From an uncultured Clostridia bacterium (GTDB taxonomy: Bacteria > Bacillota > Clostridia > Christensenellales > Borkfalkiaceae): a stretch of 58,792 bases of DNA. The translations under genes and the position numbers were made by a program. The stretch spans positions 1 through 58,792 of the forward strand of contig CAYXXB010000001.1 in NCBI GenBank assembly GCA_964468955.1, written 5' to 3'. Position 1 is the first letter of the stretch; every line of letters starts with the position of its first letter. This document shows, piece by piece, positions 4,889 to 44,747 of the stretch. The notes under the pieces were generated by a model, which saw nothing but the letters and a program-made list of their open reading frames with translations, searched no databases and had not been told where the DNA came from.

Positions 4889-4891
4889 TTT

Positions 4892-7242: not shown

Positions 7243-7249
7243 CGTTATG

Positions 7250-7493: not shown

Positions 7494-7550
7494 AATTATT
7501 GCGCTTTCTTCGCTTTAATCACAATTTCAGATTCCGGAGAATAATATTTT

Positions 7551-8636: not shown

Positions 8637-8658
8637 ATAGAAGATAAGGGATAAAAAT

Positions 8659-10295: not shown

Positions 10296-10311
10296 AAATA
10301 ATCTGATAAAT

Positions 10312-10346
10312 TAAAAACACGGTTGTATAGCGCAACCGTGTTTTTT
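10312..10346 (+). terminator. intrinsic terminator of the asd-dapAB operon
   Basis: aaaaacacggttg/caaccgtgttttt hairpin with a T-run. Confidence 0.8.
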
Positions 10347-10353
10347 ATAAATA

Positions 10354-10387
10354 TAATCGCGGTACGGCGATTTTGCCGTACCGCGAT
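10354..10387 (-). terminator. hairpin terminator downstream of the locus' last gene
   Basis: 13-bp stem atcgcggtacggc/gccgtaccgcgat. A T-rich tail follows on the minus strand. Confidence 0.6.
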
Positions 10388-10421
10388 TTATTACCGATTA
10401 TTCGGATTTCTTTAAAATTGA

Positions 10422-18579: not shown

Positions 18580-19362
18580 TTAATTAGCTTTGGCTGTAAT
18601 GCTCAATGCTATTTTATTTATAGTAAAGCAAAATCCTGCTTCGCTATCTTCTTTATTATTCACGACCGTTGTATTATCAGCCCTGTGAATAACCGTAGTG
18701 CGTTCAGCCACATTGTAATATCTTAAGAAGAACGCCTTAATAGGAGCAACGCCGAAATTGAAAGACTGCATTGAAGGAGCGTCTTCCTTAACCTTGAGAG
18801 TAAATTCAAAGGTTATTTTATTCGTAGCCGCCGTATTACTATTTCTAACATTTCTATTACTTAAGCTTACGAGCATACCGTTGCCGATAACGGGATTCCA
18901 AGTACTCGTATCCATAAAATACTCAGTATCAACGGAGTGCGAAACGTATTCAAAATAATTTGTAACCGTAGTATCGATAATATTATCGCCGTCTAATGCG
19001 GTAAAAAGTAAAGATACAGAGTGCCAATTGTAATCGGTTAAATTAGACGATATTTCAAGGGTAACGGTAAAAGTATCACCTGCGGTAAGATCGTTCTTGT
19101 CCACCGACACTTTTACGCCCGAAGGGGTTGAAAAAGGATACTCTTCTTTATCGCCGGTGTTGTCCTTGTCTCCGGTATTGTCTTTATCACCGGTATTGTC
19201 TTTATCGCCGGTGTTACCACTATTGTCGGTTATACCGCTATCAGGGGTATTATCTGCAGGCTTCTTATTACAAGCAGGGAAAATAAATGCTATACTTAAT
19301 GCTATTACGCAAACTAAAACAAAGTGTAAAAATAAAGAAGTTAAATGTTTTGCCTTTTTCAT
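18580..19362 (-). CDS. 260-aa putative lipoprotein carrying one cohesin-like domain (locus protein C)
   Basis: Signal peptide with the lipobox-like 'IFPAC', a (GDKDNT)x4 linker, then a domain paralogous to the N-termini of B and D. It ends 53 nt upstream of gene B. Confidence 0.7.
   Translation of the reverse strand: MKKAKHLTSLFLHFVLVCVIALSIAFIFPACNKKPADNTPDSGITDNSGNTGDKDNTGDKDNTGDKDNTGDKEEYPFSTPSGVKVSVDKNDLTAGDTFTVTLEISSNLTDYNWHSVSLLFTALDGDNIIDTTVTNYFEYVSHSVDTEYFMDTSTWNPVIGNGMLVSLSNRNVRNSNTAATNKITFEFTLKVKEDAPSMQSFNFGVAPIKAFFLRYYNVAERTTVIHRADNTTVVNNKEDSEAGFCFTINKIALSITAKAN
18583..19128 (-). other. cohesin-like domain of protein C (approximate bounds)
   Basis: 'VKVSVDKNDLTAGDTFTVTLE...WHSVSLLF...NYFEY...ITFEFTLKVKEDAPSMQSFNFGVAPI...VNNKEDSEAGFCFTIN'. 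Confidence 0.45.
19150..19221 (-). repeat. 4 x 18-nt in-frame tandem repeat encoding GDKDNT
   Basis: Units atcgccggtgttgtcctt / gtctccggtattgtcttt / atcaccggtattgtcttt / atcgccggtgttaccact. Confidence 0.85.
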
Positions 19363-21768: not shown

Positions 21769-21935
21769 AAGTACCTCCTCAAAAGAACTTATTTATTTGA
21801 TATTAATTTGGTTTTTTCGACGAAGCTTGTCGAATTTTCGCACATATTATACACCTGACATTGCATCTTGTCAAGAATAATTCAGACAAGAATGCAATGC
21901 TTCGGGTGTATTTTGTTTGTTTTAACTACTTCTGT

Positions 21936-24900
21936 TTAAACTAAGAAGTCTTCAACGTTTGAATATCCGTTACCGATTGAGCCAACTTCGCTTAAATCGG
22001 ACGCAGAAACGTAACCGGAGTTGGTAATCAATGCCGCCAACAGGAATTCCAAATCTTCCAAAGAGGAAGTATTTGAAGCAGCTACGTAGTTGGTAATTAC
22101 ACTCATATCGTCGCCGTCACAATAACCTTCACCTGTAACGTCCCCGAGAACTGAGAGATATACAACGTCTGCAGCCGATTCGTCCTTGCCGTACGTTACT
22201 TTCCAGCCTGTGCCGATCAAATAACTCTCATCGCTGCGCAGGTCTGAATCGTCAATTCCTATGTCCTTACCGCAATCGTATACCAATTCGCCGTCGTAAT
22301 TGTAAAGACGAATACTATCCAACTGAGCGGGATTAATGTTGTCAAGGAATTCACCGGCAAATGTTCCGGGCAAGATGTTGCCGAGAACTACTCTTTCAAA
22401 ATCAGTGTCGTCCTTGCCGTGTACCCAACCCTTTTCGTCATACGAAACACGATACATAAACATGAAACCGTACATTTCATTCGTATCAAGATGTAAGAAC
22501 TTAAAGGTTGAATCTTCAGTAAGCTGAAGTGCGGCATCGCCTGAGATTGTAAGCGTTGCGTTTGCCTCGGTATTAAGCTTGAATTCAGCTTCGTAGTTGG
22601 GGTTACCGCTAAGCTTACCCGTTACGTTGGTCAAATCAGCGGATAAACCATAAGTGCCGCGTGCGCCTACCGAGCTGACGGTGCTGCCGTCGCTAAGCTT
22701 GAACAGAGGATTAATCTTCAAGTTGTTGCTTGTGAAGATATCTTCCAAGCTGCTGCCTATATCGTCGCCGATCAAGCCGGATACGATAGAAAGCGTGTAC
22801 CAATCGGTAAGCTTAACCGCTTCGCCAGTATATTCCGCCGTCTGATTCATCGGGGTAACTAATACTTGGACCTTTTTAGGCGTAATCTTGAACTTGAACG
22901 ACTGCATATCGTCTGCAGACAGCTTATAGTCGGAGCTTGCCGAACCGCCAAGGCTGATGTACGTATCGTACTCGTCTACATTTACAGGAGTCACACCGCC
23001 GTCGAATATGTACGATATAGACAAGTTGCCAGTGTCGCTAGCGAAGACGTCGGGAATAAACGAAGGCTCTTGCGCTTCACCGTTGTATTCTACACTCGTC
23101 ACCTTACTGCTGAACGTCAACTCTTTCTTATCGATGTAGTAATCGGTAATAAGAGGTTCAGGCGTGCTGACATCCATTTTTCTTATCGAATTTCTTGTCG
23201 TAACCACAGAACCTGCGGTGTTCAACGTGTAGTTCGTATTACCGCTTATGCCTGTAGCCTGTGCCTGATAAGGTTTGTTGCTTGCATGAACGCAGCTGCC
23301 CGTATCCTCGCCGACGCCTTCAACCGTTACGTTAACAACTTCGCCTTTGAGTCCGACCGCCGTTGCCGTAGGTACGTTTACAGTGCCGGTGTACGTCAAG
23401 TGCAGGTCACCCCAATGGATGTTGACTGCGTAAGGCTTGATTTCGAACGTCGTTGTGATGTTCGTGCCTCCGTCAACCGTATAGTTGGAGTTGCTTACCG
23501 CTACTGCTTCCGCCGTAAGGTTCTCGCCTGCGTCAATCTGACCGTCTACGGTTACGTGTACAACGTCATTCTTAACCCTGTTAGTAACCGTTGCTTCGGG
23601 AGCCTGTTTTTCACCGTTGTAGATCAATTCACCGATCGTCCAACTGAGAATGACTTTACGGGGATTGATTACAAACGTCGTAGTCGCTGTGGTCGAACCT
23701 TCTAACGTGTAGTTCTCATTATTGAGAGCGGTTATAGTCGCCGTAGCTTCTTCGCTTGCGTATATCGAGCCCTCGTACTCCAAAGTGATATCGCCGTCGT
23801 TTATGTCGGGGTCAAATACCAGATTTGTAAACCCAACGACATCAGGATGCTGCTCTTCGCCGTTGTATTCGAACTCCGTATCGGTATCCCATACAAAGCC
23901 AAGTACGCGAGGCACTATCGTTATAGGAATACTCTTATCCGTTTCTCTGAAATCGTCGGTAGCATCAACGTGTAAATTGACGTAAACTATGCCGACCTTC
24001 ATTGCTTTGAATGCTGCGAGGCCGCTAACCAGCGCTTCACCCGTATTCTTTGCAACCTTATTAAGATCAAGCTCAACAAAATAGTCGAAATCGCCAAGAG
24101 CGTAACTATTATCGGTTACTATCGGGTTGAGGGATACTTCATCACCGAAGGTTACCGTCGTAACCTGAAGTTCGATAGGAGCTTCGGGCTTATCGACAAG
24201 AATATCACATTCAGCCTGACCGCCTTCGTAGTTATCGGTGGGCATTACGGTTACGGAAACGTGTACGTAACCGAGCTGCGTACCGGTAATCATACCTGTC
24301 ATTACGTCGTCGAAAGCAGCTACGCCAAGGTTATCCAACAATGCCGTATCTGTAACTTCGCCCATTGCAAACAACGTCTGACCGAATTCCATATTGCCGG
24401 CAATTTCCAGCTTGGTTGAAACGCCTATCGTGATTACCTTAGTTACGAAGGAAAGTGAAAGCTTAGCTCTGTTAATTACGAACTGAGGAGCTTTGATTAC
24501 CTTTCCGCCAAGCGAGTAGTTCTTGTTGGAAAGACATTCGTCATCGGCATAAGCCGTACCTTCTTTGTAAGTTCCGACGTTGAGCTGAGCGCCCTTTACG
24601 TTTATGGTACATTCGTCCGTTACGCCTTCGCTGTTCGTAACCAAACCGGTTCTTACGGTTGCCGTAGGCGCAAACATGTTTTTACCGTCATACGTGAACT
24701 CGAAGTTATGCCATACCAAATCTACTACTATAGGAGTTATGGTAACTTCAAATTCTGCTACCGTCTTCGCGTAATTTTCCGTTTCCATTATGGTCGCAGT
24801 AATAATTACCTTACCTGCTCCGTCGGGCATCAGCACGGTGTTGTCACTGATAAGGTGACACGAACCGTCCATATCGGTCTTATCGAAGTATACTTTTTGG

Positions 24901-33900: not shown

Positions 33901-36900
33901 TTGGTCAAGTAGTTGTCGGAGAACTGTACTGTGCCGCCCAACGCAAGCTTACCGCCGGTTATACTGATTGCACCCGCGCCGCCCGAACGGTTATCGGTAA
34001 TCAAGCCTGCAAGAATTGTGACTTTGCCTTTGCACGCACAAATTGCACCGCCGTAGGTTCCGCGGTAGCCGCCCGTAATCTTACCCTGAACGATATTTCC
34101 GTTTCTGTCGGTTTTAGCCTTGCTGTCGATAATGATAAGCTCGCCTTCGACGTGGAATACCGCGCCTTCTGAAATGCCTTCTACCCTGCCGTGGTAACCG
34201 CGGTCGATAGTGTTGCCGTTGAGGTCGAAAATAATCGACGCGTTGGTAGGAACGAAAAGTTCACCGCCGTTATAGCCCGTACCGGAGCCGAACGAAGTGC
34301 TGCTTGCACTCGTCTGCGTAGCCCTCCAATCGTCGTAGAGGACGAACGTCTGCGTTTTCTTCAGATCCTGACTTGCCTTAACCGTGTTAGCCCAGTTGAG
34401 CTTGTTGTCGCGCAGGGTCATCAACGCCTCGTGAGTGCCGTCCTGATTGTAATCCGCAAGCGAATAGCTTTCGGGATGGTCGGTCGAGAAGACTGTGGTT
34501 GCTTCGTATTCGTTGTTGAGAAGGTTCCAATCCTTCGTGATATATCTGCCTGCCGCAGGAACGTGGTTAACGTTTACGGACACGCCTATTCTTGCGTCTT
34601 CCCTAAAGTTATCGCTTATGAACAACTTGTTGGTGTTGGTTTGAATATATACGTTGGATTCCTGATCAACGACAGCATTCAAATTATCAAGCTGTTTGTT
34701 GCCGTGAATATAAGCCGAACCGCCCAATCTTACGGTAGCGCTGCCGTCTACGTAAACACCGCCGTAATCTTTTCCGTAGTTGCCCGTGATTTTACCGCCG
34801 AGCATAGAGAAAGTAGAGCCGCCGCTGAGGTATACGCCGCCCGCAAAATTCTTTGCTTTATTGCCTGTGATAGTACCGCCTTCGATGGAAAGCGTACCTT
34901 GGTAAACCGCAATACCGCCCGCTCTGCCGTTGGAATACGACGTGCTGTTACCGTCAGTGAAGCCGCCGGTGATTCTACCCTTCTGGTCCGGATCACTGTC
35001 TTTTATGACGAGAGTACCTCTTACGTAGATAACTTCGCCGTCCTTAATAGGCGACACAAGCGCACGGTCTATTATGTGACCGTTGAGGTCGAGAATGACG
35101 TGGCACTTTGCGGGAACGTACAACGCGCCGCGATAGAACGCGCTCAAGCCTGAAATATCGCCGAACGATTTAGTGAACGTACCGTGAGTATCCGCCGTCC
35201 AATCTTCGAAAAGCGTGCAGACCTGCGCCCTGCCGCCGTTGGCAAGACTCGTCTTGACCGCGTGCGCCCAGTTGGTAAGGTTATCCTTGCCGATGAACGC
35301 CGCTTCCATACTTGCGTCGTCTAAGTAGCCTTCGTCTACTATCATATAGCGGTTGTCATCCGACGTGAAGTACGTGGTGGGTTCAACCGTCTTATTGTAT
35401 TTACTGTAGTTGGTAGTAAGAGTACCGGAACCGAAGTTAGAACTACCTTTTGCCCTCATTACGCCGAACTGAGCGGATGAGCCGAATTCGGAAATAATGT
35501 TAATCATCTGCGTTTCGTTATGCAGATAAAGGTTTGTTACGTTGCCGTTGCTGAACTGATTGCCGGTAATTCTTGTCTTACCGCCGAGTGAGAACGTGTT
35601 GTTGCCCGCAAGGTATACGCCTACGCCGTTGTTGTCTGATACGGCGCCGCCTTCCATAGAAAGCTTACCTTTGCTTACAACGTGGATACCGCTCGCGTAC
35701 TTGGCGTCGTTGATGCTCGTACCCGTAGTCCAGCCGCCCGCAATCATACCCGAGCCGCCTGTCGACGTGTCGATTATGCTGAGTTTGCCTTCTACGTAGA
35801 TAACGTAGCCGTCATCGTTTGCACGGGGCAAGTCACGGTTAATCAAGCCGTCGTTGAGGTCAAGCACGATTTGCGCGCTTGCAGGAACGCGGAGAGCGCC
35901 TTTGGTGAACGCCGTCGTGTCCGAACCGAACGAAGTCGTTTCGTTGTTTCTCGTTGCGACCCATTCTCCGAACAGCTTGAAGGTCACTTCGGTCTTGCTG
36001 GTCGTACTGTAAGTTACTGCGTTCTTCCAGTTAGTAGCGTTGTCATAGCAGTACAGAGCCGCTTCAGTTGCGCCGCCGCTTGTCAAATCGATAACCTTGT
36101 GGAACGGGTCATCTGATGCGAAGAAGAACGTAGAAGCAGGTTCGCTGTTGTAACGGCTGTAATTGCTTGTTATCTTGCTTCCGCCCAGGCTACCATCTGC
36201 ATAGTTGTTAACCGACTTGTAAACGCCGATGTGAGCGCCTTCGGTAAGCGTATCGGTAACACCCATAACGCCGGTTTTAACGCCGAACACAACGTCCTTC
36301 TGAACGCCCGCGCCAGACTTGTTGCCTTCAACTACCGCCTTGCCGCTTACGCTGAACATTGCGCCGTCTTCGATATATACGCCCGCATAGGTGCTTTGGT
36401 TATTTATAACCGCAGCGTCCTGAAGCATGAACGTACCGCCCTTTACGACGTATACGCCGCTTGCCGAGTTGGTTGACGTAGAAGCGTTCCAGTTGCCCGA
36501 AACGGTACCGCCGAGCATTTTAAGAGTTGCTTTACCGCCGACGTGGATACCGCCCGCATAGAAGTTGGTGTTATTTCTGTCGTTCTTACCGCCGGTAATA
36601 ATTGCTTTATTATTTTCGTCCTTTTCAGCCGAATCATAAATAGTCAATTTGCCGAGAACGACGAATACAAGACCGTACTGACGTGCGGAAGTTATATTTC
36701 TGTTAATCGTCTTGCCGTTCAAATCCAGCTCGATGTTAGCAGTTTCGGGAACGTAAAGCGCACCGTTGCTAAAGCCCGTACCCGAGCCGAACGAAGTGCC
36801 TAAGCTTGCGTCGCCGTCCGCAGTCCAGTGGTCGGTAAGACGAACAGTCTGAAGCTTGCCGCCCGTTTTAACGCTTTGGTCAACCGCGTATTGCCAGTTG

Positions 36901-39900
36901 GTGAAGTTGTCGGGTGACAGGAAGAATAATTCGCCGTCGCCGCCTTCGATACCGTAATAATTGTCGTTTTCAGACTTGAAGCATTCGAGAGGCGAGTTGC
37001 CGGGCATATAAGTCTGGAAGCCCGACGTTACGGTGCCGTTGCCGAGTCTGGTAACGCCGATAACCTGCGTAGGTACAAGCTGTTTATCTACGTTTATAAG
37101 CGCGTCTTTGACTGCAATATAAACGTTTTTGGGAGCATTCGAAGCATCCGTGTTGCCGTAAATATCGATAGCTCCGCCGAGGGTAAGTTTGCCGCCTTTA
37201 ATTACGTGAATACCGGCGCCTTCGGTACCCTTATTCTCTGTAATCGTACCGCCGTGAACGGTAAGCACGCCCGTGCTGTCGACGATTATACCGCCGCCAC
37301 CGTTCTTGTTGTTGCCGCCGACAATCATACCGCCGCCGACAGAGTCTATAATTTCGAGGTTGCCGAGAATGGTGATTACAGCACCGTTGTCAACCGCAGC
37401 TCCGTCGAAAAGCCCTCTGTCGATAGTGAAGCCCTTAAGGTCGAGAATTATGGACTTCTTTGCGGGCAGGTAAATCGCACCGTTCTTGAACGCCGAAGTG
37501 TCCGAAGGATGGAACGTAGTACCGTACTTTTCGCTGGACTCCGCCGTCCAATTATCCGTAAGCTCGAAGGTTATCGTAGTCGTAGCGGAGCTTGCCGCGA
37601 CCGCGTTGACCCAGTTGGTGTAGTTTTCCATACACCAGAACGCGCCTTCTCTGCCGGTGTCGAGGTAAATGGTTGTAACGTCGTGCCATAAATACCAGCT
37701 GCCGAAGAAGTAACGGTCGGGAGTATCGTCCGCGTCAGGGTGGAAGTTCGAGAAATTCTTTGTGAACTGAACGCCGCCCTTGCCCTTTGTCGCATTATTG
37801 TAGTTGTTGACCTTGTCGTTGGGCGAAATGCCTATGTTCGCGCTCTTGTTGAACTTCTGAACGATTTCAACGTAATAGTTTGCGGCATTAAAGTGAACGT
37901 CGCTGCTGTATTCGCCGAAGTTGTGCTTATTGCCGAATATCTTTGCGCTGCCGCCGAGCTTGAGCGTTAAAGACGTTCTGAGGTTGATAGCGCCTGCGCC
38001 GGTATGCGCATCTTTAGGACCGCCGTAGTTTTCGGTAATCGTACCGCCCGTCATCGTGAAGGTGGTCGTCGTAAGGTCGAGAACTATCGCAGCACTCTGC
38101 TTGCCGGTAGCGCGGTTGCCCTTAATGGTGCCGCCTTCCATAGTAACGGCGCCGTTGCCGAGAATTGCTATAACCGACGACTGGTCGTATTCGTTGGTGC
38201 TTTCGCTGTTGTTGAAGCCGCCCGTAATTACGCCCTTTCCGGTTGTGGACGAGTCGATTATTTTAAGCATGCCTTCAACGCGGATAACGTAGCCCAAGTC
38301 AACTGCCGCCCTGAAGCCTCTGTCAAGAGTGCAGCCTGCGAGGTCGAGAACTATGTTTGCGTTAGCGGGAACGCGGAGCGCACCGCCGTTTGCCGCATAG
38401 AACGCGTTTACCGTGCTGTCTACGCCGAACGAACCTGCGTCCGAAAGCCAGTCGTCTACAAGCTTGAACGTAATCTGCTTTTTATTGCCCGTAACGCTCG
38501 CCTTAACCGCATACAGCCAGTTGAGCTGGTTGCTGCTGGTGTAAAGCGCGCCTTCGCCGTTTTCGAAGTTGTAAACGTACATCGGGTCGGTACTCGTGAA
38601 GAAGTCCGTAGGAACTTCCGAAGGCATAAACTTCTTGAAGTTAGTCGTGAAGTCGCCTACGCCGTCGCGGGTAAAGCCCGTCAGTCCCCTGCCCTTTTGC
38701 GTGAGCGGGGAAATAATGTCTATCATCTGAACCGCGTTGTTTGCAACGATGTCCGAAGCAAGCAGACGGTTATTCGTGTTGCCGGTAACGATTGCGCTGT
38801 CGCCGAATGAGAAAGGAAGAACCTTGTTGTCCGACCTTGCAATTTCAACGCCGCCCGCAATACCGATGTTGCCCGTGATTTTACCGCCGAGCAGGGTAAG
38901 CGCGCCGGTCGCGTCCTTATCGCGGTAAGTGATGCCGCCGCCCGTATCCGTGCTGTAGCCGCCTGTAATCACGCCCGACTTGCTTGCCGAACTGTCGATA
39001 ACCGTAAGGTTGCCGATTACGTTTATAACGTAGCCCATCGTTCTGGGCGTGGTAAGACGCCTGTCGAGCTTGTGGCCCGCAAGGTCCAAAATTATATACT
39101 TGCCCGCGGGAACGTTAAGTCCGCCGTTTGAGTACGCCGCCGTTTGAGTGCCGAACGCCGTAACGAAAGTGGTGTAATCTTCCGCAAGCCAGTCGCGGTT
39201 AAGCGTAACGGTTATAGGAGCCGCCGCGGTGCTTGTCGCCGCGATGCCCTGACGCCAGTTCTGCTCGTTATCAATGCAGATAAGCATACCTTCGATGCCG
39301 GAGCCGAGGTCGCGCTTGCCGATTACGTATTTTAAGGGGTCGGAAGCTTCGAAAACGTCCTTAGGCTCTATCGTCTTGTTGAGAGACGCGAAGCTTGAAG
39401 TGAAGACGTTATTGTCAAGGTTTCCGTAGTTGTTGCCAACGTAAGCAACCGCAATTCTTGCGCCGCTTTCGAACTGTGAGTAAACGTTGATTTTGTTTGC
39501 TACCGTGCCGCCGTTGTTCAAAACGTCGGAAGGCGCGCCTGAAAGAAGCTTGTTGCCGTAAATCTGCGCTTTGCCGCCGAGGTATACCTTTGCCGCGCCG
39601 GAAACATTTACACCGCCCGTGAAGGAGCCTGTGTTGTCGGTAATTACGCCGCCCGTCATTATAAACGTATTGTTCGCGTGCGTGTCGGTATAAACGCCGC
39701 CCGTTGACAGCGCGTGTCCTACCGCGCGGTTGCCCGTTATAATGCCGCCTTCCATTATGAACTTGCCGCGGTTGTTGATGCCGCCGCCGACGTAGTCGTC
39801 ACTCGAAGTAAACGTATTATTACCGCCGGTAATCTTGCCGCCGCCGACAGAGTCAATCAACTTAAGCGTACCGCCGTCGGCAATCAATATGACAAAACCA

Positions 39901-42900
39901 TTGTCGATGCCGGAACCAAGCGCTCTGTCTATAGTGTAGCCCGCGAGGTCGAGAATTATATTGGCGGCGTTAGTCCAAAGCGCACCGTTTGTAAGCGATT
40001 GATTATCGGACGCGTCGCCGAACCTGCCCATCGTATCCGCGGTCCAGTGTGAAACAAGCGTTACCTTACGCTGAGTACCGAGCTTGACGCTTTCGGTAAC
40101 CGCATTATACCAGTTGGTGTAGTTATCCCAGGTATACAAGGCAGCTTCGCCCGTTTCCGCACCCGAATCTATTACGAATCTGTCGGGATCGTCCGCTACG
40201 AAGTGAGCCGCCGCACCATCCGTATGGTAGTGAGCAAAGCCGTTTGTAAAGTCGCTGGAAGCTTCGAAATAAATACCGCTCTTTTCAGGTGAAGTGAGCT
40301 GAGATTCCGTTCTGTCGAACGTGATTACCTGTGCGTATTTTGCGCGCAGGTTGATATTCAAAGGCTTGTCGAACGTATTCTTATTGCCAGTAACGACAGC
40401 GCTTCCGCCCATTGCGAAGTAATTTGCTTTAGTAAAAGTGGTGTCTACAAACGTTGCGATACCGCCCGCGTCGCCGATATTGTCGGTAATCTTACCGCCG
40501 TAAATCGAAAGATACGTTGTTGCGGAGGTGATATTGATGCCGCCCGCCTCGCCTTCCGTCGAGTTGTAGCCGCCCGTAATGATACCGCCGCCGACAGAGT
40601 CTCTTATTTCGAGACGGCAAGTGCCGCTTGTGTTTAAAACGTAGCCGTGTTCTATGCTGCTGTCAAGTGCGCGGTCCAATCTGAAGCCGTTGAGGTCGAG
40701 AATAATATTACTCTTGGGCAAGTCTAAAGCGCCCGTAGCCGTAAAGCCCGTGCCTGTACCGAACACGCCGTCTACAGCAATCCAGTTTTCGTAAAGCTTA
40801 ACCGTTATGGGCTGCCCCGTAACCGCGTCTCTGCCCGCATTAACCGCGTCCGACCAGTTTTTAGCCGCACTGCGTATCCAGTAAGTAGCTTCCTTTGCCG
40901 CGCCCAAGCCGTATTCGAGAATAATACCGTAGCTTGTATCGGAAGAGAAGAAGAAATCCGAAGCGGGCTGCGTGTTATACGTGCCGTAACCGCGCGTGAA
41001 TATGTTGCCGTTCGTCGTTTCCAGCGTGATGTTGTTTGTATCCGGTCTGTGAATACCTATCTTCGCGGGAGAAGTGAGCGGGCTTATTATCTCTATTTTA
41101 TAATTGGCGCCATCGTTCATATGCGCGACGGTAGAACCCGCCGTTGCCGAAGGGTTGTAAATGTCGCTGGGATTGCCTACGCCGAATTCTTGACAATCGT
41201 CGCTTTGGAAGTTGTTTAAAATTCTGGGATTGCCGCCGAGCGAGAGCGTACCCGACTTAAGCGAAACCATACCTATACCGCCGGCAAAATTGCCGAGGTT
41301 GTTGGTAATAGTACCGCCCGTAACAGTGACTCTGCCGCCCGCAACCTGTATGCCGATTGCGCCCGCGCCGAACATAGTCGTTCCTTTCGAATCGGTTGCA
41401 TTGGACCTGTTGCCAGTTATATTGCCGCCTTGAACGACAAGCGTGGAAGACGCGTTGGTAAGCGTAATTGCGCCGCCCGTGTAAAGACCTTTATTGTTGG
41501 AAACAAAGCCGCCCGTAATGGTGCCTGTTCTTGCGGTAGAGCTATCCTTAATATATAATGTACCGCCGACTATATTTATAACGTTGCCGTACATCATACC
41601 GACGGAATAATCGGATAAGCCTCTGTCAAGAGTGTGACCGTTCAAATCGAGTACGATTGCGGAGCCTGTAACTACGTTCAGCGAACCGTACCAGTACGGG
41701 TTCGTAGCCGCCGTGCTTGTATCCGCTTCTTCGTCGCCTAAGAACGAGGTGCCGAAGTTTGCCGTTGCGTTGTCCACAGCCGTCCAGTCTTCGGTAAGCT
41801 TAACGGTGTACAGCTTGCCGTTGAGTATCTTACTCATCGTGACCGCGGTACTCCAGTTGTCCGCGCCATGCGCAGAAACCATAACTGCTTCGCCCGTAGT
41901 CTCGTCCGTATCTATGAAGCAACCGGGCTTTTGAGCCGTGAAGTAATTTGCAGGGTTTGCCGTACCGTTATTCGCGGGGTAGCCCGACGTAATGGTGAAG
42001 AGTATATCCCTGTAAACGCCTATTTTCTTGGTGGTCGTAAGGGGTTTAACTATGGTGATAAGACCGTTATCAATCTTATCAGTATCCGTAAGCTTAACGG
42101 AAGGAAGATGGACGTCGTTTGCCGCGCCGTTGGCGGTGTTGCCCTCTATTACGGGGTTGTCGCCTATGGCGAAGTAATTGTTTTTAAAGCCGAAGCCTAT
42201 GCCGCCCGCTTCCGTTTCCGCTACGTTGTTTATAATTTTGCCGCCGAGCATCGTAAGCCTTAACGCAGCCTGTTTTGCGGTCGTCGTACCGCCGAGGTAA
42301 ACACCGCCTCCCTTTAACGCGTGGTTGCCCGAAATTTCGCCGCCGTTTATATTGATGTCTGCCTTGCCCGCGTCAACGGCATTTATGCCGCCGCCGTTGC
42401 CTAACGTGCCGTCCGACCTGGTTATAGCCGTATTATTGCGGACAATACCGCCGTTGATGTTGACAGTGCCGGTATTTATGTATATACCTGCGCCTTGGTT
42501 AGCGTAGTTGTCTTCGATAATACCGCCGCTCAGGGTAAACGTTCCCGAACTCGATACGTGAATGCCGCCGCCGTTGCCGGCAGTGGTGGCGGAACTATTT
42601 ATGTTGTAGCCGCCAGTGATTTTACCGGTCTGAGCTGCGGAAGTATCCGTAAGCTCCATAGTACCGCCGTCAACCTTAATTACGTGTCCGGTTGTCTGAA
42701 CTGCGGTAGCCGCGGTCAGACCTCTGTCTATCGTGTGACCGTTCAAATCGAGAACGATACTCTTAGCTGCAGGAACCTTTAACCACAAGTCCGACGTGGA
42801 GTTGTAGCCTTCGTTATGGTCGGTAAACATCTTGCCGTTAGCGTCTGCAGTAAGTTCCGCAGGCGCTACGAATTTGCCGCCAACAGCGATTATATCGGCA

Positions 42901-44489
42901 TTGAGCTTAACCGTCATCGTACCGGTAGTGGCGGTGCTTGCAAGCACCGCGTTCTGCCAGTTGAGGATATCGAGCTTGTTAGTCCACCTTACTTCCGAAC
43001 CCGCACTTGTAGTAACGCGCTTATTATCGGGGTCGATCCAGTAATGGTCGGGATTGGAAGGCTTGAAGAATTGCGTCGGGTCGTCGTTGCCGTTAGCCGC
43101 GCCGTAGCCCGAAGTAATCGCAGCCCAGGTCATACTCGCAATGGGCGTAGATACGTAGTTATCCGTGTATTTTACTACGTGAATTTCCGCGCCGGGCAAC
43201 AGCTTTTCAGAAACCGCTATAACATTGGTTCTTATTGATTTGGCAATGCCTGTACCCTGTCTGCCGCAGTATAAATCCAAGTCGTTGGGGTATTTAGGAG
43301 AAGATGAGTTGTACTCGTCCTGAACGTAGTTGTCCTTTATTACGATTGTTCCGCCTACGTAAAATTTGCTACTGGTATTGCTTCTTACACCGCCCGAAAT
43401 GTAACCGATATTGCCCGATATTTCGCCGCCGAGCAAATATACCTTCGGTGTTGTGTTCGTACCATTCGTAGCATCAATGCCGCCTGCGCCCTGTTGTTTA
43501 CCCATGCCGACGTTGCCCGTAATTTTGCCGCCCTTTATCGTGGTCGTAGAGCTGCCGTGCGTAAAAATGCCGCCCGTACCGTGGGTTGTTTTAGTGCTTG
43601 CTCCGTCGCATAAACATTTATTGTTGCTTATTTCGCCGTTGTGCATTGTAAACGACGTGCCGTTATTGTAAACGCCGCCGACGTTGCGGGGATCACCCGA
43701 AGCCAGATAGCATGTGTTATCGGTGATTTTGCCACCGTACATATCGAACGTAGAGCTACCTGTAAGGGTAACCGCACCGCCCCAACTACTTTTATTGCCC
43801 GTAATTGAGCCGCCGTACATTTCCACATGACCACCGTTAACGGCTACGCCTGCGCCCATATAAGATCCGTTAGAAGAAGAATAAGAATTCCATCCGCCCG
43901 TGATTTTACCGCCGCCTACGGAGTCGGTTATCTTCAGATAGCCTTGAACATATATTACGAAGCCGCCCTGAGTCATAGCCTTGCCGAGACTGCTGACGTT
44001 ACGGTCTATCGTGTGACCCGCCAAATCGAGTTCTATGTACCAACCGCTGGGAACGCGGAGCGCACCCCCATAACGATAGTCGGTACTTGAGGGTTTATAG
44101 TACGCGTTGGAGTTGCCCGTGCCGAACTCCGTTCTGAACGTAGTGGCGTTGGTTGAGTCCTTTACTTCCGCAATCCAGTCGCCCGCAAGCGTTACCTTTG
44201 CGTAATTCGCCGCGTTACCTTTCGCCGTGATAGCCGCAAGCCACGCAGTCTGGTTTGCCGAGTTGGCGTTTGCCGCGTACGCCGTGGTCGTTTCCGCGTT
44301 ATCCGAAGCTTCGTTGTTCCAGAACTTAAATCCCGAAATACCGAATACCGCGGTAAGCACCGTCAGCATAAACAGTATGCAAATAACCGCCGTGCGCCAT
44401 AAACCTGCACGACGAACCGTCCTTACGGAATTCATTCCGTTGCGGTTGTTTGCTTCATTTATCCTGTTTTCCGTGTTCTTGTTTTTCAT
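21936..44489 (-). CDS. 7,517-aa giant surface protein (locus protein E)
   Basis: Uninterrupted 22,554-nt ORF with RBS aggtga. The N-terminus is basic with a hydrophobic helix 'TAVICILFMLTVLTAVFGI'. It carries 14 beta-helix-type modules, an MBG-like/Ig-like repeat array and a dockerin-like C-terminus. Periodic protein-level repeats exist only in this frame. Confidence 0.85.
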   Translation of the reverse strand: MKNKNTENRINEANNRNGMNSVRTVRRAGLWRTAVICILFMLTVLTAVFGISGFKFWNNEASDNAETTTAYAANANSANQTAWLAAITAKGNAANYAKVTLAGDWIAEVKDSTNATTFRTEFGTGNSNAYYKPSSTDYRYGGALRVPSGWYIELDLAGHTIDRNVSSLGKAMTQGGFVIYVQGYLKITDSVGGGKITGGWNSYSSSNGSYMGAGVAVNGGHVEMYGGSITGNKSSWGGAVTLTGSSTFDMYGGKITDNTCYLASGDPRNVGGVYNNGTSFTMHNGEISNNKCLCDGASTKTTHGTGGIFTHGSSTTTIKGGKITGNVGMGKQQGAGGIDATNGTNTTPKVYLLGGEISGNIGYISGGVRSNTSSKFYVGGTIVIKDNYVQDEYNSSSPKYPNDLDLYCGRQGTGIAKSIRTNVIAVSEKLLPGAEIHVVKYTDNYVSTPIASMTWAAITSGYGAANGNDDPTQFFKPSNPDHYWIDPDNKRVTTSAGSEVRWTNKLDILNWQNAVLASTATTGTMTVKLNADIIAVGGKFVAPAELTADANGKMFTDHNEGYNSTSDLWLKVPAAKSIVLDLNGHTIDRGLTAATAVQTTGHVIKVDGGTMELTDTSAAQTGKITGGYNINSSATTAGNGGGIHVSSSGTFTLSGGIIEDNYANQGAGIYINTGTVNINGGIVRNNTAITRSDGTLGNGGGINAVDAGKADININGGEISGNHALKGGGVYLGGTTTAKQAALRLTMLGGKIINNVAETEAGGIGFGFKNNYFAIGDNPVIEGNTANGAANDVHLPSVKLTDTDKIDNGLITIVKPLTTTKKIGVYRDILFTITSGYPANNGTANPANYFTAQKPGCFIDTDETTGEAVMVSAHGADNWSTAVTMSKILNGKLYTVKLTEDWTAVDNATANFGTSFLGDEEADTSTAATNPYWYGSLNVVTGSAIVLDLNGHTLDRGLSDYSVGMMYGNVINIVGGTLYIKDSSTARTGTITGGFVSNNKGLYTGGAITLTNASSTLVVQGGNITGNRSNATDSKGTTMFGAGAIGIQVAGGRVTVTGGTITNNLGNFAGGIGMVSLKSGTLSLGGNPRILNNFQSDDCQEFGVGNPSDIYNPSATAGSTVAHMNDGANYKIEIISPLTSPAKIGIHRPDTNNITLETTNGNIFTRGYGTYNTQPASDFFFSSDTSYGIILEYGLGAAKEATYWIRSAAKNWSDAVNAGRDAVTGQPITVKLYENWIAVDGVFGTGTGFTATGALDLPKSNIILDLNGFRLDRALDSSIEHGYVLNTSGTCRLEIRDSVGGGIITGGYNSTEGEAGGINITSATTYLSIYGGKITDNIGDAGGIATFVDTTFTKANYFAMGGSAVVTGNKNTFDKPLNINLRAKYAQVITFDRTESQLTSPEKSGIYFEASSDFTNGFAHYHTDGAAAHFVADDPDRFVIDSGAETGEAALYTWDNYTNWYNAVTESVKLGTQRKVTLVSHWTADTMGRFGDASDNQSLTNGALWTNAANIILDLAGYTIDRALGSGIDNGFVILIADGGTLKLIDSVGGGKITGGNNTFTSSDDYVGGGINNRGKFIMEGGIITGNRAVGHALSTGGVYTDTHANNTFIMTGGVITDNTGSFTGGVNVSGAAKVYLGGKAQIYGNKLLSGAPSDVLNNGGTVANKINVYSQFESGARIAVAYVGNNYGNLDNNVFTSSFASLNKTIEPKDVFEASDPLKYVIGKRDLGSGIEGMLICIDNEQNWRQGIAATSTAAAPITVTLNRDWLAEDYTTFVTAFGTQTAAYSNGGLNVPAGKYIILDLAGHKLDRRLTTPRTMGYVINVIGNLTVIDSSASKSGVITGGYSTDTGGGITYRDKDATGALTLLGGKITGNIGIAGGVEIARSDNKVLPFSFGDSAIVTGNTNNRLLASDIVANNAVQMIDIISPLTQKGRGLTGFTRDGVGDFTTNFKKFMPSEVPTDFFTSTDPMYVYNFENGEGALYTSSNQLNWLYAVKASVTGNKKQITFKLVDDWLSDAGSFGVDSTVNAFYAANGGALRVPANANIVLDLAGCTLDRGFRAAVDLGYVIRVEGMLKIIDSSTTGKGVITGGFNNSESTNEYDQSSVIAILGNGAVTMEGGTIKGNRATGKQSAAIVLDLTTTTFTMTGGTITENYGGPKDAHTGAGAINLRTSLTLKLGGSAKIFGNKHNFGEYSSDVHFNAANYYVEIVQKFNKSANIGISPNDKVNNYNNATKGKGGVQFTKNFSNFHPDADDTPDRYFFGSWYLWHDVTTIYLDTGREGAFWCMENYTNWVNAVAASSATTTITFELTDNWTAESSEKYGTTFHPSDTSAFKNGAIYLPAKKSIILDLKGFTIDRGLFDGAAVDNGAVITILGNLEIIDSVGGGMIVGGNNKNGGGGIIVDSTGVLTVHGGTITENKGTEGAGIHVIKGGKLTLGGAIDIYGNTDASNAPKNVYIAVKDALINVDKQLVPTQVIGVTRLGNGTVTSGFQTYMPGNSPLECFKSENDNYYGIEGGDGELFFLSPDNFTNWQYAVDQSVKTGGKLQTVRLTDHWTADGDASLGTSFGSGTGFSNGALYVPETANIELDLNGKTINRNITSARQYGLVFVVLGKLTIYDSAEKDENNKAIITGGKNDRNNTNFYAGGIHVGGKATLKMLGGTVSGNWNASTSTNSASGVYVVKGGTFMLQDAAVINNQSTYAGVYIEDGAMFSVSGKAVVEGNKSGAGVQKDVVFGVKTGVMGVTDTLTEGAHIGVYKSVNNYADGSLGGSKITSNYSRYNSEPASTFFFASDDPFHKVIDLTSGGATEAALYCYDNATNWKNAVTYSTTSKTEVTFKLFGEWVATRNNETTSFGSDTTAFTKGALRVPASAQIVLDLNDGLINRDLPRANDDGYVIYVEGKLSIIDTSTGGSGMIAGGWTTGTSINDAKYASGIHVVSKGKLSMEGGAVSDNNGVGVYLAGNNTFSLGGKTRITGNQFSNGNVTNLYLHNETQMINIISEFGSSAQFGVMRAKGSSNFGSGTLTTNYSKYNKTVEPTTYFTSDDNRYMIVDEGYLDDASMEAAFIGKDNLTNWAHAVKTSLANGGRAQVCTLFEDWTADTHGTFTKSFGDISGLSAFYRGALYVPAKCHVILDLNGHIIDRALVSPIKDGEVIYVRGTLVIKDSDPDQKGRITGGFTDGNSTSYSNGRAGGIAVYQGTLSIEGGTITGNKAKNFAGGVYLSGGSTFSMLGGKITGNYGKDYGGVYVDGSATVRLGGSAYIHGNKQLDNLNAVVDQESNVYIQTNTNKLFISDNFREDARIGVSVNVNHVPAAGRYITKDWNLLNNEYEATTVFSTDHPESYSLADYNQDGTHEALMTLRDNKLNWANTVKASQDLKKTQTFVLYDDWRATQTSASSTSFGSGTGYNGGELFVPTNASIIFDLNGNTIDRGYHGRVEGISEGAVFHVEGELIIIDSKAKTDRNGNIVQGKITGGYRGTYGGAICACKGKVTILAGLITDNRSGGAGAISITGGKLALGGTVQFSDNYLTNGRREDITFWSNTSPLIEIASAFVTGEDVTKNDIFVKRNIIGEFTKDWGKYNPTSKPETRFKAAVNTYRVASTGTGAQREAVMLSNNNNDNWVFAVTASLSNKEPQYFSLVDNWTAANYSGGSYTTRFGTNSTAYRSGALLVPAGANIVLDLNGNVLDRNHGLANDIKYPAINVVIIVEGTLQIVDSSIMQTGVIKGGSYGVYVNKDTASLTVGGLIKPDGLVLNGDEANLYGTYGAGTITSNSIYGINVNAGSLTVTGGKITGNTNADVFVSKNTAASVSVGDNAYIYTENRTAGTGLRLENPLGIINVASKLTNDAKIGFSRQSVGQLTKGWGAKNGNDADPYASIFVSEEPAIYNRKTEVFDGYTELSVSSFDNAVNWQFTVDKSLATGEAQEFTLYGCWTAAADEELTTSFGSGTAFRNGALYVPEGAKVTLNLNGHKINRNLKTSVQNGMVIYADGELEIVNNKVDNPAGLIPPTCCDRSEGVITGGANLTGSSGGALHIGATGSVTLTDGKISNNKGESQSASAGAVYSAGKFFMNGGTISSNTAKYSGAVYVAGSGMFVMTGGTIESNTAESGGGAVYTTGTVNFTGGTITKNYAVIGGVYVASNGKFTMDGDALITANTGSSAGAVFVNSGSGTYFTMNGGTISNNKAIGAGGIYSAGKTDILGGTITGNTATGTSENDGGGAIYVTSTGNVTVTGGEITANTGENGIRVYGAGTMSVGGSARIYNNIAMDKTNVGGDREVEPNDYCDIFFNLATKKLNVVSEFTEEAKIGIYRLNAGIFTSGFGMYNDVHPNTVFVSNRSIFAISKTASDDVTNIEASIGTPVDPEPNALETPRTYNGNWQSIIENIDLSMMTIGEYDTTVMRESVGSDGLVKIEAVNAGTYHVAFTLKDTYCWKDGTTDVKVIYTTVTPKTVALKWSKETHYVDGNPVLDDLGIDPICVYDGTTEHKPFVEVAAGYLVTNAITGKLDECTVAISGATKDASGPDGHTAKATGLSNSNYKLGTGAEVEYKFHVLKAERPEFEITTTTAAYNYPTKIEVSGNLENGKLTYEVDASCKSFASFNENGELIAKKYDPDTPVIVKIKVTAGESKNYKQSEATAEITVVRGKLYATIVPAEVTFGTSVQLTLEGEFSATDIIGAIKYTKSLTGDGQASLSESGLFTATGVGKVYVTATVEESVDYEATTIEAVIEIIPKVLTVNWGTSLTTPYSGSPQTLAAPTLEGTNSSDNCTVSVYKAGFLGWDSKKQAPTWSEVGKYDVGLVLSDPVNYKLENDSDYFATFEIVKADLTEDVFKFTSYSASVGVPFKPEVTGNPAGSNVKITKESDTIRGNYDLDRTTGEYTAYTTGTMTFKAVFEGDKNYNPKTIWGVFTIAETDIPLEISPSELTYGDPATEIKLSYKNPNDPNPIPATATATVISLDSSYNAIAELVEIDGKKCILPKAAGTIKIHVEHPAASPYKQTSVDLEVVIKPLPVKVDWTFDTNGYIYNGTAQYPTATITGTLVGSDLCGVTGYEAYQLKDGEYVKVEGGAINAGDYKIKAIFDNANYVIDEDYSANLTIKPLPVDLSWSNTNLVYNGKEQAPTAGVFNIVIIDGEMDECTVTVVGTKNAGTNLTARATELSNPNYTLEGGKNLTEKFTITPKSVTVTWGETDLVYTGERQAPKATAVGLLGKADGLEEDDTTEVVVTGEQVNVNPADNPYTATASSLSNHNYQLDPDVYHTTQFNIVKATPTITLKQTEAIYGTQFILQIDGNAGNGTVTYSLGEGDGVTATLGSGNLLTPIDVGSIEVIVSVAATQNYNGVTEQKYTLPIKPRPIEVSWDDLVFDYDKNPHNPTATVTNQVGGEVLELTLSAAQTNAGTYTATVTGIKLLGDLTNKYTLEGGTDISQEFVINKKVVTITWSNTEFTYDGDDHAPTATIGDLEDGDTCTATVKGAKDAGMNIVAEITELSNSNYTVEGAANETVRFNIYQRLAKLSWSDTELPYTGSEQLPTVEITNLVEGDECTVNLDGAAVDVGTHTATAISLSNPNYTLVFDDDETDPEKRTQIECEFEIVKGKITIELVDDEVTFGSEITLSLVENPSGNDPTFAIVTGGTGSGSITDGTTFKATGAGTVKVSVHVASSANYDEADDEVEVTVKKLPVVIEWVDGEFTYNRTKQTPTASVSNVVDGYPCNVTAIDGSTDAGENLEAKVTAVDNDNYTIEGGTNITTNYAIQPLPVTMITWDSDRTYEYNGDSQGPNATASGIIYPDECKVTVSGWQTNVGDYTAEITGLSNSNYSLVGIVDLTVDFKIVISTPTLTLKTTEVQIGTTKKIEVEGNIGNGDMTYTIVSGGDYGELNGDSLYGKMLGTVRIRVDVAATSNTNAAYVEGDINVVKGQPPLKLERNTVMYGSTLTLTVDDNGGALRDGNGDLMFGNVTFTVVSRYANVAEIVDGNVLKPKSAGTVYVKMETEETDYFDAAKGNNAVTVEITITPRIITLGWKDGTFTYNAKDQHPEVEITNIVGNDKVELVVSGGKNVGDHTAKVTGLTGVDSKNYTLDRTTNKEKDFHINPYVLSLEWGDLTLPYNGEDQTPEAIVELVDGETAECNVILEVEGPHKNVGTYTVKATGVDNNNYELDQTYETTFQIVPADLKPTLTPASIEYGKTEVLTLGGNIDGAPYDLQVDSSNSVGNGVVNNDNGKWTFTATRVGSVKIKVKINGTTNCNPFNGVLEIEVVKAERNVELLTLEGVYGEDLVLEISGNDDDPGLVSFAPAASDNDYAVIVGNKLTPKHAAYVTVIVQVAATDNYKSATVSAQVHIKPRVVEIEWQHHEFEYDGTEKKPEAKVANLINDDECEVTVGGGGTNAGHYTNAHVISLSNPDYTFEGSISASGHMFDIAKKAIKIEIVTDRINVDDEVKLVITGNEGDAPVTVTVDESGNAKIKEGTTDVIVALNKGSVNVTVSVAESQNYFGDTKTKLIIIDKSKLTLTLKNNTIQYGDKKGLVLDVEGNVENQKVYFDKTDMDGSCHLISDNTVLMPDGAGKVIITATIMETENYAKTVAEFEVTITPIVVDLVWHNFEFTYDGKNMFAPTATVRTGLVTNSEGVTDECTINVKGAQLNVGTYKEGTAYADDECLSNKNYSLGGKVIKAPQFVINRAKLSLSFVTKVITIGVSTKLEIAGNMEFGQTLFAMGEVTDTALLDNLGVAAFDDVMTGMITGTQLGYVHVSVTVMPTDNYEGGQAECDILVDKPEAPIELQVTTVTFGDEVSLNPIVTDNSYALGDFDYFVELDLNKVAKNTGEALVSGLAAFKAMKVGIVYVNLHVDATDDFRETDKSIPITIVPRVLGFVWDTDTEFEYNGEEQHPDVVGFTNLVFDPDINDGDITLEYEGSIYASEEATATITALNNENYTLEGSTTATTTFVINPRKVILSWTIGELIYNGEKQAPEATVTNRVKNDVVHVTVDGQIDAGENLTAEAVAVSNSNYTVDGGTNITTTFEIKPYAVNIHWGDLHLTYTGTVNVPTATAVGLKGEVVNVTVEGVGEDTGSCVHASNKPYQAQATGISGNTNYTLNTAGSVVTTRNSIRKMDVSTPEPLITDYYIDKKELTFSSKVTSVEYNGEAQEPSFIPDVFASDTGNLSISYIFDGGVTPVNVDEYDTYISLGGSASSDYKLSADDMQSFKFKITPKKVQVLVTPMNQTAEYTGEAVKLTDWYTLSIVSGLIGDDIGSSLEDIFTSNNLKINPLFKLSDGSTVSSVGARGTYGLSADLTNVTGKLSGNPNYEAEFKLNTEANATLTISGDAALQLTEDSTFKFLHLDTNEMYGFMFMYRVSYDEKGWVHGKDDTDFERVVLGNILPGTFAGEFLDNINPAQLDSIRLYNYDGELVYDCGKDIGIDDSDLRSDESYLIGTGWKVTYGKDESAADVVYLSVLGDVTGEGYCDGDDMSVITNYVAASNTSSLEDLEFLLAALITNSGYVSASDLSEVGSIGNGYSNVEDFLV
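21939..22148 (-). other. dockerin-like C-terminal segment of protein E
   Basis: 'GDVTGEGYCDGDDMSVI...ITNSGYVSASDLSEV' is collinear with the protein D C-terminus. Confidence 0.5.
22900..31400 (-). repeat. alternating array of about 20 MBG-like ('Y(N/D/T)G..Q.P.a.V') and about 14 Ig-like ('.YG......i.G') domains
   Basis: Motifs such as LVYNGKEQAPTAGV, LVYTGERQAPKATAVG, EFTYDGDDHAPTATIGD and LPYNGEDQTPEAIVEL are each followed by 'SN(S/P)NYTLEG....F.I.P'. They are interleaved with modules like 'TEAIYGTQFILQIDGNAGNGTVTYSLG'. Confidence 0.7.
31420..44270 (-). repeat. 14 diverged modules of about 290-310 aa, each with an 'NW..AV' cap, an 'LDL(N/A)G.(T/I)(I/L)(D/N)R' signature and G-rich beta-helix turns
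   Basis: Counted in the translation: IELDLAGHTIDRN, IVLDLNGHTIDRG, IVLDLNGHTLDRG, IILDLNGFRLDRA, IILDLAGYTIDRA, IILDLAGHKLDRR, IVLDLAGCTLDRG, IILDLKGFTIDRG, IELDLNGKTINRN, IVLDLNDGLINRD, VILDLNGHIIDRA, IIFDLNGNTIDRG, IVLDLNGNVLDRN, VTLNLNGHKINRN. Each is followed by 'GG.ITGN.....GG(A/G)(I/V)(Y/H)'-type turns. Confidence 0.8.
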
Positions 44490-44718: not shown

Positions 44719-44747
44719 ATTTTATCATAGGGCTATATGAATTTCAA
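44719..44747 (-). promoter_or_regulatory. putative sigma-A promoter of the giant gene (TTGAAA-17-TAAAAT) with an adjacent A/T-tract UP-like element
   Basis: On the minus strand: ttgaaa (44747-44742), 17-nt spacer, taaaat (44724-44719). A T6A9T3 tract at 44751-44768 lies immediately upstream. This implies a 5' leader of about 220 nt. Confidence 0.5.

Follow-up and report, generated by a model that had tools for sequence, protein, structure and literature searches.

A giant protein of 7,517 amino acids (aa), ending in a divergent dockerin and encoded directly upstream of three proteins with predicted cohesin-fold domains, was identified in a 58,792-bp stretch of DNA (hereafter the window) from an uncultured Clostridia bacterium of the Borkfalkiaceae (assembly GCA_964468955.1). 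The window is the complete NCBI contig CAYXXB010000001.1. We favor the reading, at a probability of roughly 60%, that the giant is a secreted, adhesin-like fiber held on the cell by cohesin–dockerin binding to membrane anchors encoded by its neighbors; this proposal draws on sequence comparison and structure prediction. The gene itself is real, kept by selection in an uncultured gut bacterium, and not an assembly artifact. An initial annotation of the window had described a basic N-terminus with one hydrophobic helix, about 4,300 aa of beta-helix modules, about 2,800 aa of MBG-like and Ig-like repeats, and a C-terminal module of about 150 aa. The N-terminus was borne out, with aa 30–54 as the sole hydrophobic segment of the protein, and so was the putative beta-helix region, which resolves into 14 modules. 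The repeat array was present and in the order described, with a length closer to 2,900 aa, and the C-terminal module proved distinct, with a size of about 200 aa. Coordinates of all parts are collected in the table below.

The C-terminal module carries the argument for anchoring. It consists of an X-like, beta-rich domain followed by a tail that, by profile comparison, is a member of the dockerin family. The giant's tail covers positions 1–52 of the 57 in Pfam Dockerin_1 (PF00404), an end-to-end alignment, and on its own retrieves PDB dockerins at an expectation value (E) of about 0.2. A profile of 43 family tails, searched against PDB sequences, matched 4dh2_B (2.5e-9), 4uyq_B (7.6e-9), 2ccl_B (1.1e-8), and 1ohz_B (6.4e-8), together with about twenty further dockerins from solved complexes, several of these alignments spanning the whole module; the Amy16 and Amy12 dockerins of Ruminococcus bromii were matched as well. 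Dockerin_1 was detected at E ≤ 0.01 in 39 of the 43 family members (best 1.6e-8), and the homologous tail of a different giant from the human gut (locus L047) passes the Pfam cut-off (37.9 versus 22.9 bits). The first loop is EF-hand-like, reading DVTGEGYCDGDD in the giant (D-x-T-G-E-G...D) and the canonical DxDGDG in relatives. The second loop, LITNSGYVSASD, is atypical, having a hydrophobic residue at position 1 and an invariant N at position 4. The domain preceding the tail is conserved and family-specific and is termed X-like by position only; the AlphaFold2 (AF2) model of the giant's C-terminus reaches a predicted local distance difference test score (pLDDT) of 70–86 in blocks at roughly aa 7350–7430. 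No known fold or family was recognized for it: a profile of this domain alone retrieved nothing from the PDB, and no known X-module was matched. A noncovalent C-terminal anchor had initially been considered unusual for a protein of this size. With a C-terminal module made of an X-like domain and a dockerin, such an anchor is not unusual in kind, since dockerin–cohesin anchoring of surface proteins is well known.

Two features of the locus go beyond the initial annotation: the 750-aa neighbor carries the giant's C-terminal module, and cohesin-fold partners are predicted from three downstream genes. The X-dockerin tail of the 750-aa protein aligns with aa 7270–7514 of the giant at 37% identity over 255 aa (E = 6e-46). 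The 750-, 260-, and 2,312-aa proteins have in common an N-terminal domain of ∼170 aa that follows the signal peptide. An AF2 model of this domain (pLDDT 80.9; predicted template modeling score 0.78) was compared with the PDB using Foldseek, and most of the top 50 matches were type I, type II, or type III cohesins, at a probability of 1.00, an E between 1.3e-6 and 4e-4, and target-normalized template modeling scores (TM-scores) up to 0.66. Many of these cohesins were solved together with their dockerins; the matches include the ScaE cohesin of Ruminococcus flavefaciens (2zf9) and the cohesin-like domains 2vo8, 2jh2, and 2w1n of Clostridium perfringens. At the level of sequence, a profile of the domain matched no PDB entry at E ≤ 10. 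The 260-aa protein and two orthologues display a lipobox Cys (..AC|NK) followed by a low-complexity linker, making the 260-aa lipoprotein a candidate membrane anchor. The 2,312-aa protein, with six Cadherin-like stretches and a transmembrane helix at aa ∼2210–2240, is a candidate membrane-anchored scaffold, and the 750-aa protein is a candidate adaptor.

The gene arrangement is conserved across the related lineages sampled. The core order, a giant ending in X-dockerin, then a protein of 740–820 aa running from signal peptide and cohesin to X-dockerin, then a protein running from signal peptide and cohesin to a transmembrane helix, is found in the window and at loci L015, L075 (also with a lipoprotein), L077, L078, and L079/L080/L081, the last three of which flank a giant only ∼30% identical to that of the window. 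Locus L017 displays the order in part: the cohesin of its middle protein was undetected, and its third protein runs off the end of the contig. Wherever the C-terminus of the third protein lies on the contig (window, L015, L075, L078, L079, and L081), it ends in a transmembrane helix. At L016, the gene following the giant is a homologue of the 1,366-aa membrane protein encoded upstream of the giant in the window (28% identity over 578 aa). A cohesin-like domain and an X-dockerin occur in a single chain in 21 family representatives, as in adaptor scaffoldins.

A word-seeded search with the C-terminal 218 aa retrieved two relatives only; an exhaustive HMMER search with a profile built from their alignment raised the number of representatives with the C-terminal module to 237, including 57 at E ≤ 1e-30. 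Of 168 domains, 143 are located no more than 30 aa from the C-terminus. Among the matches are the giant itself and six more giants of 7,169–7,994 aa, which by construction of the library are <50% identical to each other. All seven share the same plan, and five of the seven contain exactly 14 "LDLNG" motifs by the same regular expression. Four align with the giant of the window in a single colinear high-scoring segment pair of ∼7,400 aa at 42–52% identity, and modules 2–14 each match their positional counterpart, with a best score that exceeds the runner-up by a factor of 1.3–5.3 (about 2 or more in most cases). Against P0136, identity is 41–71% in every 250-aa segment. The clusters hold further near-identical giants, with intact open reading frames (ORFs) of 7–8 k aa in Logan, NCBI, and ENA assemblies, on contigs of up to 267 kb. 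These colinear orthologues bear out the earlier suggestion that the full length has been maintained over the long term; because full length, module number, and module order are kept across lineages, a pseudogene is excluded.

Smaller relatives were also encountered. ENA metagenome contigs L018–L046 and L065–L073 (OF* accessions) encode many proteins of 650–1,100 aa in which between one and five beta-helix modules of the giant's type accompany a single or double X-dockerin, in some cases together with one MBG-like domain; no cohesin-like gene was detected on these contigs. Since the smaller proteins combine the same modules with X-dockerins, the giant appears to be an enlarged representative of a wider family of dockerin-bearing proteins. 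A different giant (L047–L071) recurs across roughly two dozen assemblies of gut metagenomes, several with human gut in their titles. At L047, its ORF (2–10408) encodes at least 3,469 aa, being cut by the locus edge, with seven BspA-type LRR_5 stretches, MBG_3, and a Dockerin_1 domain homologous to the C-terminal module of the family of the window's giant.

In the mechanism we propose, the giant would be exported by the Sec pathway through its basic and hydrophobic N-terminal segment, and its signal peptide would probably be cleaved at a conserved A-x-A site ∼20 residues beyond the helix. Domain identity and conserved synteny suggest that its X-dockerin then binds, noncovalently, the cohesin-fold domain or domains of the proteins encoded downstream. 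The 2,312-aa transmembrane protein and the 260-aa lipoprotein could serve as membrane tethers, and the 750-aa adaptor could bridge or extend the assembly. In Gram-positive adhesins, the usual order is N-terminal binding modules, an Ig-like stalk, and a C-terminal anchor. By this parallel, the array of ∼2,900 aa would form a cell-proximal stalk, and the 14 positionally conserved beta-helix modules are placed distally, as the putative ligand-binding part, because the layout of the giant matches that order. Host or dietary glycans and other cells would be obvious ligand candidates.

Several observations weigh against this reading. The giant's own dockerin scores 17.5 bits against the Pfam cut-off of 22.9, and family-wide its second loop lacks the canonical calcium-ligand positions, with no conserved acidic residues at positions 1, 3, and 5. 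The AF2 model of the giant's C-terminus, computed from a four-sequence alignment, is poor (pLDDT 58.6); three helices are predicted in the dockerin tail, but at pLDDT <50, and a Foldseek search with this model returned nothing significant. On the side of the partners, the neighbor domains are not recognized by Pfam Cohesin (PF00963), which reaches E = 0.026 in one of the three proteins, and the cohesin fold matches are moderate, with TM-scores of 0.41–0.66 and identities of 9–17%. The assignment of the giant's modules to the right-handed beta-helix of the polymorphic membrane protein (PMP) type is indirect, and searches revealed neither a ligand nor an enzymatic signature. Finally, the putative A-x-A site lies unusually far from the hydrophobic core, and hence the N-terminal helix could stay in place as an anchor.

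This last point leads to the strongest of the alternatives. The basic N-terminus (isoelectric point, pI, 10) and its helix may act as a signal peptide or as a signal anchor. If the helix were an uncleaved signal anchor, the topology would be inverted, and the dockerin at the distal tip would capture cohesin proteins, such as the 750-aa adaptor, or the cohesins of neighboring cells, mediating cell–cell aggregation or building a surface network instead of anchoring the giant. A long basic region followed by just one hydrophobic segment, of 25 residues, would suit this arrangement, as would an A-x-A spacing atypical for signal peptidase I, and the 750-aa protein, in combining a cohesin-like domain with an X-dockerin, would permit chains or networks. 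The spacing, however, is shared by the neighboring cohesin proteins, which also have a long spacer from the hydrophobic core to an A-x-A directly before the first domain; because of this placement, the A-x-A sites are likely true cleavage sites in these organisms. In the giants, "AYA" or "VYA" stands ∼20 residues after the helix in four of the seven, and P0148 has "AEA" at that position. Moreover, two of the cohesin carriers are membrane-tethered, by a transmembrane helix and a lipobox, respectively, which fits anchoring better than capture, and the usual adhesin order places the anchor at the C-terminus. We consider an inverted topology unlikely, while granting it a real share of the probability.

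Other attachment routes were tried for the giant and set aside. For sortase anchoring, the only LPxTG-like string, LPYTG at aa 5519, falls inside an MBG-like domain, and there is no C-terminal transmembrane helix; for S-layer homology (SLH) anchoring, Pfam gave no SLH match. An autotransporter (type V) was rejected with a C-terminus composed of X-like domain and dockerin and no beta-barrel family detected, and a toxin-tip reading was also considered and rejected.

The proposed stalk contains ∼19–20 MBG-like and 14–16 Ig-like domains, with amino acid identities of 25–51% within the former class and 19–42% within the latter. Among 18 MBG-like repeats, sub-threshold matches were obtained to MBG_2 in six (best E 1.5e-4), YDG in three, MBG_3 in two, and MBG in one, the scores being 16.7 versus 25 bits for MBG_2 and 17 versus 25 bits for YDG (MBG superfamily models PF17883, PF18676, and PF18887; YDG, PF18657). 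Their Y(N/D)G...NYTL motifs are consistent with the MBG family; a profile of the MBG-like repeats searched against PDB sequences gave noise only. The Ig-like repeats match Pfam weakly, below the curated thresholds (Big_3_5, 0.0011; Filamin, 0.0036; Big_2, 0.0077), and their profile matches the phage Hoc-like protein 7x30_P among PDB sequences at 2.6e-7. Hoc proteins consist of Ig-like domains, and the match is therefore consistent with an Ig-like fold.

The 14 modules of the proposed distal part are 236–467 aa long and 26–36% identical to one another. Each begins with an "xNWxxAV...DWxA" head, continues through an invariant-type "ILDLNGxTIDR" motif and G-rich "GGxI" coils, and closes with a conserved tail. 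The DNA block that the initial annotation had singled out as conserved, GTTGAGGTCGAGAA, corresponds in reverse complement to the I-L-D-L-N codons and occurs eight times with up to two mismatches, against 0.42 expected. GGx[ILVM] is found 53 times in the giant versus 9.1 ± 2.9 times in shuffled sequences. Pfam searches with two large and five module-sized pieces of the giant returned no significant family, and the only NCBIfam match on the giant is TIGR01376 POMP_repeat in module 14 (16.7 bits, cut-off 15). A search with aa 1–900 retrieved 413 homologues. All are shorter than 1,600 aa, and their identity over long alignments does not exceed ∼30%; among the best 120, Beta_helix or Chlam_PMP is matched by 25, and NosD matches also occur. 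In P0002, P0016, and P0026, the Pfam Beta_helix/Chlam_PMP matches coincide with those of the module hidden Markov model. In species-representative genomes scanned with aa 1–900, among which the source species is not represented, the best relatives are only ∼31% identical.

These modules might alternatively be lyase- or hydrolase-like units, and the locus a cellulosome-like degradative complex. The right-handed parallel beta-helix fold is found in pectate lyases and glycosidases, cohesin–dockerin systems classically organize carbohydrate-active enzymes, and the Beta_helix and NosD matches just described would agree with an enzymatic machine. Yet no Pfam or NCBIfam catalytic family was detected anywhere along the 7,517 residues of the giant or in its neighbors, the module profile matched no PDB sequence and no solved enzyme at E ≤ 1, and the repeat signature is of the PMP/"GGxI" adhesin type. 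The remaining genes of the window are housekeeping genes, and neither a carbohydrate-active enzyme nor a sugar transporter was detected among them. An enzymatic role is thus improbable. The specific case of a cellulosome was rejected as well, with no carbohydrate-active enzyme family in the giant or in any scanned gene of the window, which is one contig of the genome.

That the giant is a single gene is secure. The uninterrupted 22.5-kb ORF noted initially is real, a separate translation also giving one open frame, and its strand required correction, to minus. The other five frames of the stretch contain 86–639 stops, and 7,517 stop-free codons would arise by chance, given the base composition of the window, with a probability of ∼1e-178. 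The ATG at 44489 is preceded by an AGGTG ribosome-binding site 6 nt upstream. The initial argument that divergence of the repeats speaks against assembly collapse also stands: the longest exact DNA repeat inside the gene is 26 bp, and blastn self-matches number nine, all weak. A Logan assembly of the single run SRR9122728, from prairie-vole stool (PMC6952658), yields the same 7,517-aa product and the same neighbors and is 100% identical to the window across the 20.4 kb compared; this support is semi-independent, as the NCBI contig may stem from reads of the same project. A second run contributes another identical sequence, a 2.6-kb fragment that spans the first two genes downstream of the giant. 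With the longest repeat far below the read length of the vole-stool data (200–250 bp), the identical Logan contig, and the identical fragment, an assembly artifact is unlikely. The source is a short-read metagenome and the two assemblies may share reads, but colinear orthologues of the same size, known from several unrelated assemblies and showing no stretch where identity has decayed, leave a chimeric or collapsed repeat assembly, or a decaying remnant not made as one protein, with a negligible probability.

Table. Features of the giant gene and its neighborhood in the window. Residues a to b of the giant correspond to window positions 44489-3b+1 to 44489-3(a-1) on the minus strand.
Feature	Window position	Strand	Description
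Giant gene	21936..44489	minus	7,517 codons and one terminal stop; 797 kDa; pI 4.7
N-terminus, aa 1-74	44268..44489	minus	Basic region, hydrophobic helix, then "AYA" ~20 aa on
14 beta-helix (PMP-like) modules, aa 75-4370	31380..44267	minus	236-467 aa each
MBG-like/Ig-like array, aa 4371-7315	22545..31379	minus	Interleaved domains of ~85 aa
X-like beta-rich domain, aa 7316-7445	22155..22544	minus	~130 aa, before the dockerin
Divergent dockerin, aa 7446-7517	21939..22154	minus	~70-aa tail; assigned by profile comparison
750-aa protein	19516..21768	minus	Signal peptide, predicted cohesin-fold domain (aa ~41-197), Cadherin-like repeats, X-dockerin tail
260-aa lipoprotein	18580..19362	minus	Signal peptide and lipobox Cys, DKDNTG-repeat linker, predicted cohesin-fold domain
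2,312-aa protein	11588..18526	minus	Signal peptide, N-terminal predicted cohesin-fold domain, Cadherin-like repeats, C-terminal transmembrane helix, P/Q-rich tail
Promoter-like site of the giant	44719..44747	minus	TTGAAA-17-TAAAAT with extended -10 TG; consensus match only
Terminator of the gene upstream of the giant	45129-45094	minus	14-bp hairpin

The promoter-like site implies a leader of ∼230 nt, in which no known RNA element was found with Rfam at gathering thresholds. Downstream, the 167-nt gap between the stop of the giant and the 750-aa gene contains a perfect (12/12) sigma-70 consensus, TTGACA-17-TATAAT, at 21846–21874 (−), and no terminator-like hairpin was found there after the giant's stop. 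ORFs antisense to the giant gene, up to ∼326 aa, lie within 22866–38810 (+), for example, at 34191–35153; they sit in one plus frame with 86 stops, versus 301–639 in the other plus frames, and are read as shadow ORFs of the coding frame.

Upstream of the giant, 45144–49244 (−) encodes the 1,366-aa type-I membrane protein, with a signal peptide, a transmembrane helix at ∼aa 1003–1030, an ectodomain with MBG-like "GxYxxT" motifs recognized by eye, and an acidic/Pro-rich repeat tail of ∼335 aa; it has no Pfam or NCBIfam match. After the 2,312-aa gene, 10422–11219 (−) encodes a small protein with an N-terminal transmembrane helix and a long P/Q/M-rich low-complexity tail, and a similar 229-aa gene occupies the same position at L075 (20333–21022). 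Elsewhere in the window, a lysine riboswitch (RF00168, 69.3 bits) at 7247–7436 (+) precedes an asd-dapA-dapB operon (semialdehyde dehydrogenase, DHDPS, and DapB) at 7551–10295 (+), a textbook arrangement. The Obg ORF (53302–54687, −), as called mechanically from a TTG, shares 113 nt with the end of the Rho ORF (54575–56011, −), and its Pfam GTP1_OBG match does not begin until aa 42; the true Obg start probably lies further downstream.

Among known systems, the X-dockerin adhesin CttA of Ruminococcus binds the cell-surface cohesin ScaE through a type III cohesin–dockerin pair (PMC7456326). This pair is the closest functional analogue of the proposed arrangement. Both have a C-terminal X-module and dockerin on a surface adhesin and a cohesin on a cell-anchored protein, as predicted here, and in both the binding part would be distal and the X-dockerin proximal, by inference in the giant. 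The giant differs in being roughly ten times larger than CttA (797 kDa), in an X domain that matches no known X-module, and in its atypical second dockerin repeat, and no cellulose-binding or carbohydrate-active enzyme context was found at the window locus. Classically, cohesin carriers are tethered by sortase, as is ScaE, or by SLH modules, whereas those of the window are predicted to be held by a transmembrane helix or a lipid anchor.

Outside cellulose degradation, cohesin and dockerin modules also serve in the glycosidase complexes of C. perfringens and the amylosome of R. bromii. Those systems assemble enzymes; the dockerin proteins of the window are repeat-only, adhesin-like fibers, and its predicted cohesins reside on membrane-anchored Cadherin-like repeat proteins. 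With chlamydial Pmp proteins and other beta-helix adhesins, the giant would share parallel beta-helix coils of the GGxI type; POMP_repeat passes its cut-off in module 14. Pmp proteins are autotransporters with a C-terminal beta-barrel, whereas the giant has no barrel, ends in a dockerin, and has its putative beta-helix split into 14 discrete capped modules. Giant repeat proteins with dockerin repeats and an inferred role in adhesion have been described from gut Clostridia (West-Roberts et al., bioRxiv 10.1101/2023.11.21.568195), and these resemble the present protein as very large, predicted extracellular repeat proteins of mammalian-gut Clostridia. They differ in size (10,000–30,000 aa) and in their Listeria-Bacteroides, YG, and LRR repeats, and that survey, in the portion consulted, does not report a family with 14 beta-helix modules, an MBG/Ig array, and adjacent cohesin partners. 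No paper combining MBG domains and dockerins was found in a literature search. The locus is set apart from these systems by the scale of the fiber, the 14-module beta-helix array, and the atypical second dockerin repeat; also distinctive are the unrecognized X and predicted cohesin subfamilies, the use of transmembrane and lipoprotein tethers rather than SLH or sortase, and the compact, conserved locus.

A broader and more tentative proposal is that the locus represents an undescribed, conserved cohesin–dockerin "fiber display" system of non-cellulolytic gut Clostridia, composed of an adhesin, a new X-dockerin subfamily, and a new cohesin subfamily. The adhesin, of ∼8,000 aa with 14 individually conserved beta-helix binding modules, would possibly be a multi-ligand array. 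An X-dockerin subfamily with one canonical calcium loop would imply a single binding mode. The cohesin subfamily, invisible to Pfam, may be mounted on a lipoprotein and a type-I membrane protein, and the long low-complexity cytoplasmic tail of the latter could couple the fiber to the cell interior.

If the predicted pairing is true, cohesin–dockerin assembly extends from enzyme complexes to the display of adhesive fibers of ∼800 kDa, and the transmembrane helix and the lipid anchor join the classical SLH and sortase tethering routes. Three sequence families missed by standard annotation are now defined, of which the cohesins are detectable by fold only, and the compact three- or four-gene locus allows partner specificity to be tested directly. 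The 14 diverged modules kept in position offer a natural case for asking why giant proteins retain every module. Related loci are present in human-gut metagenomes, and the system may bear on the attachment of uncultured gut Clostridia to particles, mucus, and other cells.

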